The notes beneath the pieces are model-generated. The model saw nothing but the letters and a program-made list of their open reading frames with translations, was not told the origin of the DNA and did not search any database. Below are positions 11,463 to 46,321 of a stretch of DNA of 64,000 bases, one piece after another; position 1 is the stretch's first letter; every line of letters starts with the position of its first letter. Made by a program: the position numbers and the translations under genes. The DNA is from an uncultured virus (IMG/VR IMGVR_UViG_3300031733_000001) (lineage: Duplodnaviria; Heunggongvirae; Uroviricota; Caudoviricetes), in the IMG/VR virus record IMGVR_UViG_3300031733_000001, one strand, 5' to 3'.

Positions 11463-12884
11463 ATGCTGCTCCGGAAGCTCGCCGCCATAGCCCTGCCTGC
11501 GAAGGGCGAGTTCGCTCCGGGAATCCCCTCCCAACGGAAAATTCTACCTGTCCCAAGGGTGGGCTCGACCCGCCCGGAGGCCTGGGGCATGGCCCTGCAG
11601 GAGCACGCTGCACGGCGCGCAGGTGCCCACATAGATCTCCGGCTTGTGGATAAGTCAGGCCGCGCACATTCTTGGGTCATTCCGAAAGGTTCACTACCAA
11701 AGCCAGGGGAAAAGATAGGAGTTCTTCCACAGCCTACCCACACCCGTGAATACGCAGAACGTAAGGGAAAATTCACGATCCCTGCGGGCTACGGCGCCGG
11801 CGAGGTGCGATCAGGTGGGCTCAAACCCGTTGAAGTAGTGCGCTCTGAGCCTGGTCGACTGCTGCGCTTCAACGTCTACGGCGGCAAGAAGGAGGGCAAC
11901 CAGGAGTTCGCCCTGGTCACGACCCCCAAGGGACAGCTGCTGCACAACATTTCAGCCACTGCGGAATCGGGTGTGCGGGGCATCGGCGGCCACGAGATCC
12001 CCAGCTCGAAGCCGAAGTACCGGGAGCGGGAGGTCTCAGCGGTCTCCTTCGATGACGAACGGGAGGTTCACCAGGCGAAGGTAGACGGCGCCCACGTGAC
12101 GTTCCACCTCCGGGCTGGCAAACCGGTCAAGATCTTCTCCCACCGGCCCACAGAGCGCGCCACAGGCGTCCTGGAGCACAGCCACAAGCTACCGCGGTTC
12201 CGGGAGCTGACGGCGCCTCCTGGGCTCGCTGGGACGGTCCTACGGGGTGAGCTCTACGGGGAGAAGGGTGGCCGGGCCATCCCGGCGGAGCAGACCGGTG
12301 GGCTCCTCAACGCCTCGGTCTGGAAGAGCCGGGAGCGGCAGAAGCAGCTGGGGGCCAAGCTCAAGCCCGTCATCTTCGACGTGGTGCGTTACCAGGGCCG
12401 GGACGTGGAGGGGCAGCCCTACGAGCAGAAGCTGAAGATCTTGGAGGAGGTGCAGCGCAAAGTTCCACGGCTGAAGATGCCTCCTACGGCTCGGACATCA
12501 CGGGAGAAAGAGGCCCTACTGGCTAGGATCCAAGCCGGTAAGGAACCCATCACCCGGGAGGGCATCGTGTCCTGGAATCTGGACAGCCCGCGGCCCACCA
12601 AGGCCAAGTTCCGGCCGGACGTGGATGCCGAGGTGGTCGGTGTGACTCCGGGCCGCGGGAAGCACGAGGGGCGCATCGGGGCGCTGCAGGTGCGGTTACC
12701 TGGCCGCAGCGCGGTGACCAACGTGGGGACCGGCCTGAGTGACCGGCTGCGGGAGCAGATCTCCAGGGACCCGAAGGCCTACGTCGGCCGGGTGGCCAAG
12801 GTCCGCACGCAGCAGGTGTTCAAGAGCGGGAAGCTGAGAGCGCCCTCGTTCGGCGGCTTCCACATTGAGAAGGGGAAGCAATGA
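11463..12884 (+). CDS. LigD-type 3'-phosphoesterase domain fused to ATP-dependent DNA ligase
   Basis: PE domain: QEH...HIDLRL...SWVIPKG...HTREY...GYGAG. Ligase: KVDG, GELY, FDVV, EGIV, KAK, VGTGLSD, LRAPSF. Confidence 0.9.
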   Translation: MLLRKLAAIALPAKGEFAPGIPSQRKILPVPRVGSTRPEAWGMALQEHAARRAGAHIDLRLVDKSGRAHSWVIPKGSLPKPGEKIGVLPQPTHTREYAERKGKFTIPAGYGAGEVRSGGLKPVEVVRSEPGRLLRFNVYGGKKEGNQEFALVTTPKGQLLHNISATAESGVRGIGGHEIPSSKPKYREREVSAVSFDDEREVHQAKVDGAHVTFHLRAGKPVKIFSHRPTERATGVLEHSHKLPRFRELTAPPGLAGTVLRGELYGEKGGRAIPAEQTGGLLNASVWKSRERQKQLGAKLKPVIFDVVRYQGRDVEGQPYEQKLKILEEVQRKVPRLKMPPTARTSREKEALLARIQAGKEPITREGIVSWNLDSPRPTKAKFRPDVDAEVVGVTPGRGKHEGRIGALQVRLPGRSAVTNVGTGLSDRLREQISRDPKAYVGRVAKVRTQQVFKSGKLRAPSFGGFHIEKGKQ

Positions 12885-42877: not shown

Positions 42878-43174
42878 ATGGCGGCGAAGGTCTTCTACTT
42901 GGTCAGGTTCGAGGACCCCACCGGGACATCCGGTGAGGGCATCGTGGCTGAGGGCATCCAGTTCTCCCAGGGCGATGCGATGGTCAAGTGGAAGGGGGAC
43001 TACCCGTGCTTCCACTGGTGGCCCAAGGGCTGGCAGCACACCAGTTTGATCCACGGCCACGGAGGGAAGAGCAAGGTCGTCTGGGCTGATGATGACGGCC
43101 CGCCTCCGGAAGCGCCGGGGATCGACATCGCCGAGGACCTCACACCGGAACCCGATGATGCTGAAGAGAGCTGA
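42878..43174 (+). CDS. conserved phage hypothetical protein
   Basis: F.L.R.ED.TG.SG.G.VAEG..F..G....W...HGH.G pattern recalled from many phage genomes. Confidence 0.7.
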   Translation: MAAKVFYLVRFEDPTGTSGEGIVAEGIQFSQGDAMVKWKGDYPCFHWWPKGWQHTSLIHGHGGKSKVVWADDDGPPPEAPGIDIAEDLTPEPDDAEES

Positions 43175-44060
43175 ACCACCACCTCCAGAAGGGTGGACCG
43201 CCAAGGAGTGGGACAAGCACCTGAACCGGAAGGAGAAGAAGGGCTTCTACGGGACCCTCTACCCCAACGCCGGAGAGAAGCTGTCCGAGTTCGACGATAC
43301 GATCTTCAGCGAGGACCCGACACGCATGATGCCCAGGCTCCGGCAGATCCACAAGCTGGGCTACACGCTCCAGGGACACGACGATGTCCAGGGGCTCCGC
43401 GTCGCCATCGAGAACCGCAAGGGATCTGTCCGCAAGGGGACCGATTCTGACGGCAACGAGTGGCGTACCAAGATGAAGTACCCCTACGGCTACCTAGTTG
43501 GTACCAAAGGTGCGGATGGGGAGCCTGTGGATTGCTACGTCGGTCCGGACAAGGAGGCACCGGCCGCCTTCGTGGTCCATCAGCACAAGGACACTGGGAA
43601 GGGCTACGACGAGGACAAGGTCATGCTCGGCTTCCCGTCCAAGAAGGCGGCGAAGGAGGCGTATCTCATGCACTATGATGACCCCAAGTTCTTGGGACCA
43701 ATGGCGAAAGTCTCCATGGACCGCCTCCGGGAGCTGGTAGCCAGCAAGAAGAGGCTGGTCAAGATCTCCCACGTCCAGGGGCAGGCTCTGATGGAAGAGC
43801 TGATGGCCATCCAGAAGACCGCCCAAGGCACCCCTGACGTCGTCAGGCAGCGCGAGAGGGGTAAGCTGATACGGAAGGCCGGTCCGGGCATCGGGGGCCT
43901 CCTGGGGGCCGGTGTGGGTGCTCTGGTGGGCGCTCGGAGGGGCCAGCTGCTGAAGGGCACCATCGCCGGCCTGGGGACTGGAGCCACCCTGGGGTGGGTG
44001 CCCGACATGTACCACAGCGCCCGAGAGGCCATCCATCGGTACAGGAGCAAGGTCCAATGA
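43155..44060 (+). CDS. InPase (inorganic pyrophosphatase-like polyvalent-protein domain) plus glycine zipper
   Basis: GLRVAIEN.KGS.R.G....G.EW...M..PYGY..GT.GADG..VD.YVGP...FVV.Q......YDEDKVMLGF....A..AY..HY. Start position approximate. Confidence 0.8.
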   Translation: MMLKRAEPPPPEGWTAKEWDKHLNRKEKKGFYGTLYPNAGEKLSEFDDTIFSEDPTRMMPRLRQIHKLGYTLQGHDDVQGLRVAIENRKGSVRKGTDSDGNEWRTKMKYPYGYLVGTKGADGEPVDCYVGPDKEAPAAFVVHQHKDTGKGYDEDKVMLGFPSKKAAKEAYLMHYDDPKFLGPMAKVSMDRLRELVASKKRLVKISHVQGQALMEELMAIQKTAQGTPDVVRQRERGKLIRKAGPGIGGLLGAGVGALVGARRGQLLKGTIAGLGTGATLGWVPDMYHSAREAIHRYRSKVQ

Positions 44061-44575
44061 AGTTCATCCACATTCTGTTAGTCTTGGCTATCTGGCTCTG
44101 GCCGGCGGCGGGGCAGAGCCAGTGCGTCAAGCAGATCTACACGGACCCGAAGGTGGAGCCGAACTACGACTGTCCCGGCCCGGGGGAGGATGCTCTGGTG
44201 CCGCGGCTCGAGCTCAAGACCTCGGTGGAGCTGAAGGTGAAGCAGCCTGCTCCCTGGGACGGCATCCTGATGGGGAAGAACCGGGTACTGACCCTGGGCC
44301 TCCGCATCAAGGCGCTCCGACGGATCCGCTGGCAGGAGACGGTCGGCTTCAAGGAGCGGCTGGAGGCAGAGAAGAAGTTGGACGCCTCCATGTACCAGGC
44401 CACGATCAACCTACGCACCAGCCAGCGTGACAACTACAAAAACCAGGTCGTGGAGGCCCGAAAAGAGATCGATCGGCTATCGAAATGGTACCGCTCCCCC
44501 ACGTTCTGGTTCGCCACCGGCTTCATCACGGCCGCAGCTGGCGCTACGGCCCTCGCCTTCGGGTTGAGGGACTAA
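44057..44575 (+). CDS. exported coiled-coil protein with C-terminal TM (spanin-like candidate)
   Basis: N-terminal signal-like segment, coiled coil, WYRSPTFWFATG TM anchor. Confidence 0.55.
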   Translation: MKFIHILLVLAIWLWPAAGQSQCVKQIYTDPKVEPNYDCPGPGEDALVPRLELKTSVELKVKQPAPWDGILMGKNRVLTLGLRIKALRRIRWQETVGFKERLEAEKKLDASMYQATINLRTSQRDNYKNQVVEARKEIDRLSKWYRSPTFWFATGFITAAAGATALAFGLRD

Positions 44576-44577
44576 GG

Positions 44578-44594
44578 AAAGGCCCGAAGGCCCC
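44578..44594 (-). terminator. hairpin terminator at the convergent junction
   Basis: Minus strand GGGGCC-TTCG-GGCCTTT (cUUCGg tetraloop) right after the stop at 44594. Confidence 0.6.
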
Positions 44595-44800
44595 TAGAGG
44601 GAGGCGGACAGGAGGAGGTCGATGGCCTCCTCCTTGTCCTGGACAGCCTCGGGATCTACATCGATCACCACGTTGGCGATCAGATCCCTCAGCTCAGGCA
44701 GGGACAACGAGTGCAGTGTCTCGTCGTCTATGGTGAGCAAGTCGCCCGGGAGCGGGGGCAGGGGGAGCCGCGGGTCGCGGTCCCCTACTCCTCGTTTCCC
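44594..44800 (-). CDS. -1 frame extension of 44785..45297 (HeH/Rho-N-like C-terminal domain)
   Basis: No ATG or RBS of its own; entered through G GGA AAC (44794-44800); encodes LHSLSLPELRDLI...KEEAIDLLL. Confidence 0.6.
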   Translation of the reverse strand, partial: GKRGVGDRDPRLPLPPLPGDLLTIDDETLHSLSLPELRDLIANVVIDVDPEAVQDKEEAIDLLLSASL

Positions 44801-45297
44801 TGGGCCTCCCACTCTTCGTCGAGCTCCTTGAGGCGGTCGTCCAGCGCGTCCGGCTCGTCAACCGCCTTGTAGATGTCGGTCGCCAGGCCGAACAGGATGA
44901 ACTGCTGCCGCTGGATCTCCACCTGGTTCTCGAGGACACCCTCGAGCAGCTCCTTGACCTCGGTGTGGTTCTCGTCCACGCCTTTACCCACCGCCTCGAC
45001 GAGACCGGAGAGGTCCCCGCTGGTGGCCGGAGCGTCATCCTCCTTCGGGGCGCGCTTGCCACGCCCGGAGGTGGTCTTGCTCCCGCCCTTGCCCGAGCGG
45101 GAGCGGGTCTGCTTCGGCGGCTCGCCGTTGCCTCCGCCGCCCTCCTGCGCATCCATGATGCGCCCGATGAGATCGGCGCTCTTGGAGTTGGATGCCTCCT
45201 TGTTGTCGATTCCCAGGACCTCCCGGGCGGCCCGCCGGAGCAGGACCCGAGACATCCCCTTCAGCTCTTTCTCGGTGTAGGTTGTCGTGTCAGACAT
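44785..45297 (-). CDS. Rho-N/HeH-like domain plus coiled-coil protein
   Basis: AAGGAAGAG RBS before ATG 45297; ELKGMSRVLLRRAAREVLGI...KSADLIGRI. Confidence 0.7.
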   Translation of the reverse strand: MSDTTTYTEKELKGMSRVLLRRAAREVLGIDNKEASNSKSADLIGRIMDAQEGGGGNGEPPKQTRSRSGKGGSKTTSGRGKRAPKEDDAPATSGDLSGLVEAVGKGVDENHTEVKELLEGVLENQVEIQRQQFILFGLATDIYKAVDEPDALDDRLKELDEEWEAQGNEE

Positions 45298-45535
45298 GTC
45301 TCTTCCTTCGTCTAGGTTTCGGCCGGGCACTGCGTTTCTTTGTGGCTGGGATCTCGTACCGCAGTGCCCACGGCCCGAGATCCCGCGTGATCACGTGTCG
45401 AGCTGCCAGCTCTTCCACGTCGGCTTGTTTGTACAGCGAGCAGCTGTAGTGGTCGATGATCTTCTGCTCGGTCACCTCCTTGCAGTCTGAGAGGTGTTTG
45501 CACCACGAGCACTCCGGTTCGAGCGGTTTCGTCAT
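45290..45535 (-). CDS. small Cys-rich hypothetical protein
   Basis: CSWC...C...C; coupled overlaps at both ends. Confidence 0.6.
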   Translation of the reverse strand: MTKPLEPECSWCKHLSDCKEVTEQKIIDHYSCSLYKQADVEELAARHVITRDLGPWALRYEIPATKKRSARPKPRRRKRHV

Positions 45536-45870
45536 CCCCCACCGTTCTTCACCTTCTCCAGCAGGTGAGGTTCACATTCCTCTACCGCACAGGCGACAGC
45601 GCGTCCGGCAGGACAGTCCCAGCAGGCGTAGTTCTCGTCAGAGCACTTCAGCTGGTGGTAGACCTCCGGCCACTCCTCCTTCATCCGCATCATGCCCTCA
45701 CGCTCGTCGTCTGCTGGGTCGGCGGAGAAATCGGAAGCTTCCTTCCGTCCCTCCAGCAGGTCGATCAGACCCTCCCGACCGATCCCCCGATGCGCCGACA
45801 GTGCCCCGTTCTGGCGGGCTAGCTCCGCCAGCTCGGTGAGATTCAGATCTGCGTAGTTGTAGCGAGTCAT
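45532..45870 (-). CDS. HeH-like plus Cys-cluster hypothetical protein
   Basis: AAGGAGG RBS; LNLTELAELARQNG...REGLIDLL; C...CWDC...C. Confidence 0.7.
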   Translation of the reverse strand: MTRYNYADLNLTELAELARQNGALSAHRGIGREGLIDLLEGRKEASDFSADPADDEREGMMRMKEEWPEVYHQLKCSDENYACWDCPAGRAVACAVEECEPHLLEKVKNGGG

Positions 45871-46321
45871 AGTCCTCCTTTGTCAGTCCCACCTCCTCTT
45901 CAGGGACTCTCCGCAGGATGACGTAGAGTCCAGGGTTGTCGGGGTCGCAGTGTTTCTCCAGGATGATGCGGAAGTTGTGACGGTCATCCACGCCTACTCC
46001 ATCCGCAGCGGTGTCTTCGATCAGCTTGACCCGATTGGTAGTGTCCACCTTCTTGTAGCGGCGCTCTGCTTTGCCGGGCCAGCCCTTGTTGTAGATCTTC
46101 TCGAAGAAGACCGCGATCGTGAGCACGTATGGCACGTCCTCCTTCAGGTTCAGGAGAGCCCCCCGGCCCTCCTTCTGGATGACCTTCATAGCCCGGATCT
46201 TGAACTTCCGGGCTTCCTGGGTCAGCCGCTTGCCGCGAGGCTTCCCCTGTACCCACACCGGCTCGTAGATCTTGTTCGAGCTGGGAGGCAGGAACGGTAT
46301 CCACACCCTGAGATCGCTCAT
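45698..46321 (-). CDS. rusA: RusA-like Holliday junction resolvase
   Basis: PPSSNKIY, DTTNRVKLIED, DDR motifs. Confidence 0.8.
   Translation of the reverse strand: MSDLRVWIPFLPPSSNKIYEPVWVQGKPRGKRLTQEARKFKIRAMKVIQKEGRGALLNLKEDVPYVLTIAVFFEKIYNKGWPGKAERRYKKVDTTNRVKLIEDTAADGVGVDDRHNFRIILEKHCDPDNPGLYVILRRVPEEEVGLTKEDYDSLQLRRSESHRAGGASPPERGTVGASGDRSGGSDRPAGGTEGSFRFLRRPSRRRA

Follow-up and report, generated by a model that had tools for sequence, protein, structure and literature searches.

The question raised by this locus is whether a small gene at the end of a phage operon is translated into one protein or, by a change of reading frame just ahead of its stop codon, into two. The locus lies in a 64,000-nucleotide (nt) stretch of DNA from an uncultured Caudoviricetes virus, IMG/VR record IMGVR_UViG_3300031733_000001 (hereafter “the window”; all coordinates are positions in the whole stretch). 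The gene in question, open reading frame 1 (ORF1) on the minus strand, ends with the codons ...CAG GGA AAC GAG GAG TAG and contains the potentially slippery heptamer G_GGA_AAC. Judged from the sequence, a programmed -1 ribosomal frameshift at this heptamer is very probably the best explanation of the locus, and it is from the signal, its conservation among relatives, and the coding capacity of the -1 frame that we infer that slippage occurs.

A preliminary description of the window had reported an in-frame G_GGA_AAC at 44800-44794, two codons before the stop, followed about 5–8 nt later by a GC-rich hairpin, and a -1 frame that is open for about 66 codons and has no ATG. All three can be read directly from the sequence and its translation. 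Two sense codons separate the heptamer from the 0-frame stop, and the hairpin follows after a 5-nt spacer with its stems as described; the outer stem pairs 44788-44782 with 44764-44758, and the inner stem is CCGCG/CGCGG. The 111-nt region around the signal folds at -56.4 kcal/mol (z = -4.3). The 40-nt stretch that begins 5 nt past the heptamer folds at -20.3 kcal/mol, and only 1.8% of the 777 other 40-nt windows of the surrounding 4 kb, which served as the background, are more stable. The window has two features of a canonical -1 cassette, an in-frame heptamer and a stable structure about 5–9 nt downstream, and the stimulator hairpin is clear in it.

Such a site is singular within the window. 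Across the 64 kb, 7.0 occurrences of GGGAAAC would be expected, and three are present. Among 56 gene calls based on the GC content of third codon positions (GC3), there are nine in-frame sites of the form X_XXY_YYZ (Y = A or T), and only at the ORF1 site does the -1 frame run past the stop of the gene, by 62 codons. The tail genes of the window contain no simple lambda-style tail-chaperone -1 site in this screen, which is limited to X_XXY_YYZ with Y = A or T.

The -1 frame itself carries the marks of a coding sequence. It stays open from 21 codons ahead of the heptamer as far as the TAG at 44596-44594, and a trans-frame product would comprise 168 + 66 = 234 amino acids (aa). The overall GC content of the window is 62%, and GC3 is high in its real genes; at ORF1, the high GC3 passes from frame 0 to frame -1 at about 44790 and stays in the -1 frame until about 44600 (0.70–0.90). 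The protein encoded by the extension is conserved in eight loci besides the window, and the nucleotide differences between close pairs fall largely on third positions of the -1 frame (24/53, 20/34, 20/34, and 22/40). From this GC3 switch, the conservation of the extension as a protein, and the third-position bias of substitutions, the -1 frame is, by these measures, coding and under purifying selection.

The signal was also compared across relatives. A word-indexed protein search covering lengths of 93–298 aa defines an ORF1 family of 23 members including the query (153–214 aa). Full-length relatives with DNA are available at six loci, L001 and L002 from IMG/VR and L003 to L006 from metagenomes, with 47–56% protein identity. 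Scans with distant extension proteins added L009 and L010, in which ORF1 is much more diverged and other residues precede the Gly-Asn (G-N) of the heptamer. In total, there are eight related loci with DNA, at protein identities down to about 30%, and nine loci including the window. Two other loci from the scans with distant proteins, L011 and L012, were spurious and have no ORF1-like gene, and two further scans with distant extension proteins yielded no loci.

The heptamer GGGAAAC is identical and in frame in all eight related loci, a comparison that the preliminary description had proposed as a check, and in all six of L001 to L006 it stands in frame within the longer string CAG/GAG GGA AAC. 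The 0-frame stop lies 0–15 nt past the heptamer in nine of nine loci (3–15 nt in L001 to L006, 3 nt in L009, and 0 nt in L010). In L001 to L006, the -1 frame is open for 62–69 codons and encodes a conserved sequence. The extensions are 35–48% identical to that of the window, and their indels are in frame. At the protein level, G167 and N168 are invariant in 23/23 family members and Q166 is nearly so, with the C-terminus 0–5 residues after N168. A protein search seeded with the L009 protein returned 11 proteins, including eight further distant relatives; of the nine that were read, eight end in G-N plus one or two residues, and the ninth, P0064, ends in G-G-K-E, which may correspond to a G_GGA_AAG site.

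Constraint is visible in the choice of codons as well. In seven codon-aligned genes, 45 amino-acid columns are invariant and degenerate, and 16 of these use a single codon throughout. Five of the invariant columns are Gly, and the heptamer column is the only one of the five with a single codon, GGA in 7/7 genes; elsewhere in these genes, GGA is the rarest Gly codon (11/108). Two loci also delimit the place of the shift: a -1-frame stop lies three codons ahead of the extension start in L004, and the 0-frame stop abuts the heptamer in L010, so that the shift is confined to the heptamer and 3 nt on either side.

The downstream structure is less uniform than the heptamer. A hairpin begins 5–8 nt past the heptamer in all seven loci that were folded, with stems that are unlike between clades, and the 40-nt window past the heptamer is among the locally most stable 1.8–3.4% in five of the nine loci; conservation of the stimulator among the relatives is no more than suggested. 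The GGAGG that the preliminary description had placed just upstream is present at 44809-44805, 4 nt before the heptamer, and is peculiar to the window, being absent from the six other loci L001 to L006.

Several observations weigh against programmed frameshifting. The hairpin is unremarkable in four of the nine loci (local percentiles of 5.8%, 10%, 19%, and 38%), and the z score of the single-sequence fold is weaker than -1.2 in 4/9 (-0.18, +0.38, -0.09, and -0.60). An RNAalifold comparison of seven loci found no common structure and no compensatory pairs. None of the 22 sequencing runs listed with the stretch is an RNA run. According to a passage of one source (PMC5009743), heptamers ending in AAC are less shift-prone than those ending in AAG in Escherichia coli. 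The conservation of the Pro-rich linker at the start of the extension could be due in part to the C-rich arm of the RNA stem instead of constraint on the protein. To these are added the possible start codons near the extension: a GTG (ATG in L005) lies six codons upstream of it in six of seven loci, represented in the window by GTG 44812, and L009 has a GTG at codon -11.

These start codons are what would be expected if the extension were a separate small gene of about 50–72 aa, with the heptamer incidental and translation beginning either at its own start (GTG 44812, or a TTG at about 44743) or by reinitiation after the ORF1 stop. Public gene callers do call proteins of 38–75 aa here, and in some distant relatives (P0035 and P0042) a Met stands right at the start of the folded domain. 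The -1 ORF of the window has no start codons other than GTG 44812 and two TTGs, and the GTG is taken to arise as a side effect of the Glu-Trp codons that ORF1 conserves; initiation there may nevertheless occur in the loci that have it. The only Shine-Dalgarno-like sequence, GAGGA, abuts GTG 44812 with zero spacing. Because gene callers use the codon -6 start, public databases hold “proteins” of 68–75 aa that begin there. The loci that delimit the shift speak against an independent start: in L004, a stop lies two codons after the codon -6 GTG, between it and the extension, and none of the first 30 extension codons is ATG, GTG, or TTG, whereas L010 has none of these from 10 codons upstream to codon 26. 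Other candidate starts vary in position from locus to locus, and some fall inside the first conserved helix. A separate gene would also leave unexplained why GGGAAAC is conserved as nucleotides, with the rare GGA, and why the 0-frame stop always comes within 15 nt after the heptamer. Independent initiation at GTG 44812 was the alternative raised at the outset; L004 and L010 offer no usable start for the extension, and initiation may occur where a codon -6 start exists. As an account of the locus as a whole, a separate gene is unlikely.

That the two frames join into one sensible protein would also fit a single 236-aa gene broken by a sequencing or assembly indel, or by a recent inactivating frameshift mutation. 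However, the same frame break occurs in nine independently assembled and strongly differing loci, and purifying selection acts on the frame past the break. The heptamer is crossed without a gap by contigs of three other metagenome runs. Two of these (X3 and X6) show no differences, and the third (X7) has 14 substitutions in 820 nt, none of them in the heptamer; two lie in the internal bulge of the hairpin (44766 and 44765), outside its stems. Three independent assemblies show no indel, a point on which the preliminary description had proposed a read-level check. An unbroken form is equally absent from the proteins. An in-frame extension is present in 0/23 family members, in a search whose upper limit of 298 aa covers a product of 234 aa. 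A profile of the extension, searched without length limit against 1.84 billion representative proteins, gave 29 matches; of the 18 with an expect value (E) of at most 3.5e-6, 17 are free-standing ORF calls of 38–75 aa, and the remaining one, P0041 (1669 aa), carries a similar module nine times over and does not resemble ORF1. The weaker long matches are unrelated proteins with HeH/SAP/Rho_N-type modules. Neither protein search returned a single-frame fusion, which the preliminary description had named as evidence to look for against frameshifting, and a sequencing error or a broken gene is very improbable. Where small ORF calls begin ahead of the domain, 11 of 12 contain Gly-Lys (G-K), the -1-frame reading of GGG AAA. 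The small ORF call P0036 is without G-K.

Slippage by RNA polymerase instead of the ribosome would be expected to yield the same two proteins. Known sites of transcriptional slippage are runs of about 6–9 or more identical A or T, whereas the longest runs at the heptamer are G3 and A3; the X_XXY_YYZ phase together with a hairpin 5–8 nt downstream typifies ribosomal frameshifting, and a transcriptional origin is hardly to be expected.

Under programmed ribosomal frameshifting, ribosomes translating ORF1 would reach G_GGA_AAC with the Gly tRNA in the P site and the Asn tRNA in the A site, and the hairpin, 5 nt downstream, would then be placed at the mRNA-channel entrance. Some of the ribosomes would slip back by one base in tandem, from GGA to GGG and from AAC to AAA, and would translate 66 more codons in the -1 frame up to the stop at 44596-44594. 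Ribosomes that do not slip would add two more residues and terminate at 44787-44785. One mRNA would in this way give two proteins with the first 168 residues in common, and the signal would set their ratio. The short form of 170 aa would carry one HeH/SAP-like module and the long form of 234 aa would carry two, one at each end, with the C-terminus of the long form made up of a Pro-rich linker and a second small helical module. The features on which this scheme is built are listed in Table 1.

Table 1. Coordinates of ORF1, the frameshift signal, and the -1 extension in the window
Feature	Position	Strand	Description
ORF1 (0-frame gene, short isoform)	45297..44785	minus	Start ATG 45297; 170 aa; stop TAG 44787-44785; GC3 0.80–1.00
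N-terminal four-helix domain, ORF1 residues 9–52	45142..45273	minus	AlphaFold2 predicted local distance difference test (pLDDT) >90; HeH/SAP/Rho-N-like
Predicted disordered Gly/Ser/Lys/Arg-rich linker, ORF1 residues 54–94	45016..45138	minus	pLDDT <50
Long helical hairpin, ORF1 residues 96–165	44803..45012	minus	Predicted helices 96–146 and 149–165, pLDDT 75–87; conserved motifs
Slippery heptamer G_GGA_AAC, Gly167 and Asn168	44800-44794	minus	In frame as X_XXY_YYZ
Spacer GAGGA (5 nt), heptamer to hairpin	44789..44793	minus	From sequence and fold
GC-rich stem-loop, presumed stimulator	44758..44788	minus	7-bp outer stem, 5-bp inner stem, loop ACC
-1 extension	44594..44794	minus	66 codons plus stop TAG 44596-44594; first codon reuses the last base of the heptamer
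Folded part of the extension, residues ~16–66	44597..44749	minus	Predicted three-helix SAP/HeH-like module after Pro-rich linker
Small cUUCGg hairpin just after the -1 stop	44580..44593	minus	4–5 pairs; weak terminator candidate

The predicted structures of the two ends of the long form have best matches of the same kind. The AlphaFold2 model of ORF1, built on the 23-sequence alignment, has a confidently predicted N-terminal domain, a disordered linker, and a long helical hairpin. The closest Foldseek matches of the N-terminal domain are YqbF, the SAP domain of DEK, and the N-terminal domain of Rho, with a root-mean-square deviation (rmsd) of 1.4–2.0 Å over about 44 residues and all at E >1. 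Structure rows of the ESM Atlas for ORF1 are Rho_N clusters with template modeling (TM) scores of 0.26–0.36, and the top scores of the ESM Atlas feature search (0.78 and 0.77) belong to unnamed clusters and are leads only. The linker varies in length and composition among the relatives; because it is basic in the clade of the window but consists of Pro/Glu-rich stretches in distant relatives, no weight is put on its charge. For two copies of ORF1 residues 95–170, the complex prediction gave a score of 0.10 against a mark of 0.42, a result that speaks neither for nor against oligomerisation. Scans of Pfam and PHROG with ORF1 and the -1 ORF returned nothing at E ≤ 1.

The model of the extension, built on 26 sequences, has an unstructured Pro-rich start followed by helices at residues 24–29, 32–42, and 54–65 (pLDDT 83–91). 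Its top Foldseek matches are the SAP domain of FAN1, the N-terminal domain of Rho, Slx4, and the SAP domain of Tho1 (rmsd 1.5–2.0 Å over 40–44 residues, E ≥ 0.84). Weak matches of the extension profile include proteins with Pfam matches to Rho_N, SAP, YqbF_HeH, and HeH, and a Pfam scan of the extension itself found no family at E ≤ 1. The Pro linker and HeH/Rho-N-like helix pair of the preliminary description therefore stand as a Pro-rich start and predicted helices, whereas the domain assignment finds no Pfam match and only non-significant structural matches; the HeH/SAP-like identity of both ends is a consistent lead from the models and not demonstrated membership.

The extension module looks like a diverged copy of ORF1's own N-terminal HeH/SAP-like domain. 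An hhalign comparison of the two aligned 34 columns with an E of 2.3e-4 and a probability of 44%. In a six-frame translation of the window, hmmsearch with the extension profile found only the extension itself, with the N-terminal domain of ORF1 as the next best match (E 0.97). P0041 (1669 aa) and P0045 (266 aa) contain nine and three tandem copies, respectively, of an extension-like module. Since these tandem copies occur in unrelated proteins, the extension-like module is, on sequence similarity, a mobile and repeatable unit found in other, probably viral, proteins.

The genomic setting of ORF1 is a replication/recombination module. From 1 to about 44 kb, the plus strand encodes tail fibre, baseplate-J, Ig-like, and beta-helix proteins, a DNA ligase, and a pyrophosphatase-domain protein, with the tail and baseplate genes at 1–42 kb. 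An operon for replication and recombination occupies the minus strand between about 62 and 44.6 kb; it encodes a ResIII helicase, a DnaB-like helicase, a DnaG-type primase, a family A DNA polymerase (PolA), a RecA-like protein, a Cas4-like PD-(D/E)XK nuclease, RusA, and two small ORFs. ORF1 is the last gene of this operon, at the point where plus- and minus-strand transcription converge, and a plus-strand gene ending at 44575 converges on the ORF1 extension. L001 has the same gene order as the window, with a PD-(D/E)XK nuclease upstream and a convergent pyrophosphatase-domain gene downstream. That ORF1 is a non-tail gene is borne out by its position, within the operon and not beside a tape-measure gene, and every comparative test that was run agrees with a programmed frameshift in it.

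The cUUCGg hairpin directly follows the -1 stop, as had been noted, but its role as a terminator finds less support: the terminator scan did not call it and found no terminator, and the hairpin is absent from the minimum-energy fold of its 51-nt context (z = -0.97). An Rfam scan of 44300-45500 gave only sub-threshold chance matches.

The phage appears to be distant from the cultured ones. A blastn search of 44400-45600 against GenBank phages and a tblastn search of ORF1 against 50,697 GenBank phage records gave no match, and a scan of genome contigs found no relative of ORF1. Since the PolA of the window is at best only about 32% identical to those of GenBank phages, the phage is one without a close cultured relative. 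Its DNA is present in rhizosphere and wetland metagenome runs.

Some neighbouring genes are worth recording in their own right. A protein with the PF18823 “InPase” domain is encoded convergently just downstream of the frameshift gene in the window (43089-44060, plus strand; E 1.6e-42) and in L001 (4298-5986, minus strand; E 2e-44). Amid mostly structural genes, an ATP-dependent DNA ligase with a weak N-terminal match to the LigD-type 3'-phosphoesterase is encoded at 11463-12884 on the plus strand. The RusA-like ORF at 45698-46321 (minus strand, 207 residues) matches Pfam RusA over residues 33–136, after which come about 70 Arg/Gly/Ser-rich residues, and it shares 173 nt, in a different frame, with the next gene (45532-45870). 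Chance alone may have kept this tail open in GC-rich DNA; alternatively, the true stop or start may lie elsewhere. The overlapping gene at 45532-45870 (minus strand, 112 aa) is two places upstream of ORF1, and its Leu/Glu-rich start resembles a HeH/Rho-N-type helix pair; the extension profile matches it with an E of only 2.5, and Pfam gives nothing meaningful.

The heptamer has precedents in other viruses. GGGAAAC is given as the predicted tail-chaperone shift site of Burkholderia phage KL1 (gp18/gp19) in an excerpt of its description (PMC3483164), and a passage of another article reports it for the haloarchaeal virus HCTV-1 (PMC5009743). In tail chaperones of the lambda G/GT type, including that of KL1, a -1 shift takes place on G_GGA_AAx a few codons ahead of the stop in a small phage gene, short and C-terminally extended isoforms share their N-terminal part, and the frame break is kept across distant phages and never fused. 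Unlike these genes, ORF1 lies outside the tail module, away from the tape-measure gene and at the end of a replication/recombination operon; it falls into no Pfam or PHROG family, the chaperone families included (E ≤ 1), and its added part would be a small HeH/SAP-like module, not a domain that binds the tail tube.

Other systems share different parts of the picture. Capsid genes reportedly also use -1 frameshifts, namely gene 10A/10B of T7 and the gene for the major head protein of Lactobacillus phage A2. As with ORF1, neither is a tail gene of its phage, and a -1 shift close to the 3' end extends the C-terminus in a fraction of the products, but they encode virion proteins, whereas ORF1 is non-structural by position and its family has no characterised member. 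In dnaX, frameshifting yields the shorter product, and a Shine-Dalgarno-like element about 10 nt upstream contributes to the shift. Both dnaX and ORF1 are genes of the replication machinery that pair a -1 heptamer with a stem-loop on its 3' side, with a fixed isoform ratio that we infer for ORF1; in contrast to dnaX, the shifted product of ORF1 would be the longer one, and no upstream element is conserved, the GGAGG being found only in the window. The site of E. coli dnaX (tau/gamma) is A_AAA_AAG, as stated in a section of PMC5009743. For the N-terminal domain of ORF1 and for the extension alike, the top structural matches are of the SAP, HeH, and Rho N-terminal kind (FAN1, Slx4, Tho1, DEK, Rho, and YqbF); however, neither of the two matches Pfam at E ≤ 1, and the Foldseek E is at least 0.84 throughout.

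Well-supported phage recoding sites outside tail-chaperone genes are few; in the SEA-PHAGES training set of PRFect, tail chaperones make up 2397 of the 2476 joined genes, according to a part of its description (PMC10885494). Searches of the literature found no description of this recoded gene; one of them, on frameshifting with SAP, HeH, or Rho_N in phages, gave no paper that is relevant by its title or abstract. Since the mechanism is a textbook one, the surprise is moderate; the novelty lies in the gene family and in its genomic location, a conserved recoding site in a gene of the replication module in an uncultured soil and wetland phage lineage. Annotation pipelines split such loci into two genes, with the extension recorded as a 38–75 aa protein that has an artefactual N-terminus, and a joined coding sequence (CDS) is warranted instead. 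ORF1 can further serve as a non-chaperone test example for frameshift predictors, and the compact natural element of G_GGA_AAC plus hairpin could be useful for studies in high-GC hosts.

As for the role of the protein, fold hints and gene position suggest, as a best guess, an adaptor of the replication/recombination module that binds nucleic acid or a partner, with its valency set by the frameshift. Tentatively, the frameshift may act as a valency switch, by which a fixed share of the molecules would gain the second module, so that one-headed and two-headed adaptors could tether or bridge DNA or a common partner during replication or recombination, and the recoded gene might then be a hallmark of an uncultured soil and wetland phage lineage represented by contigs of 58–137 kb.

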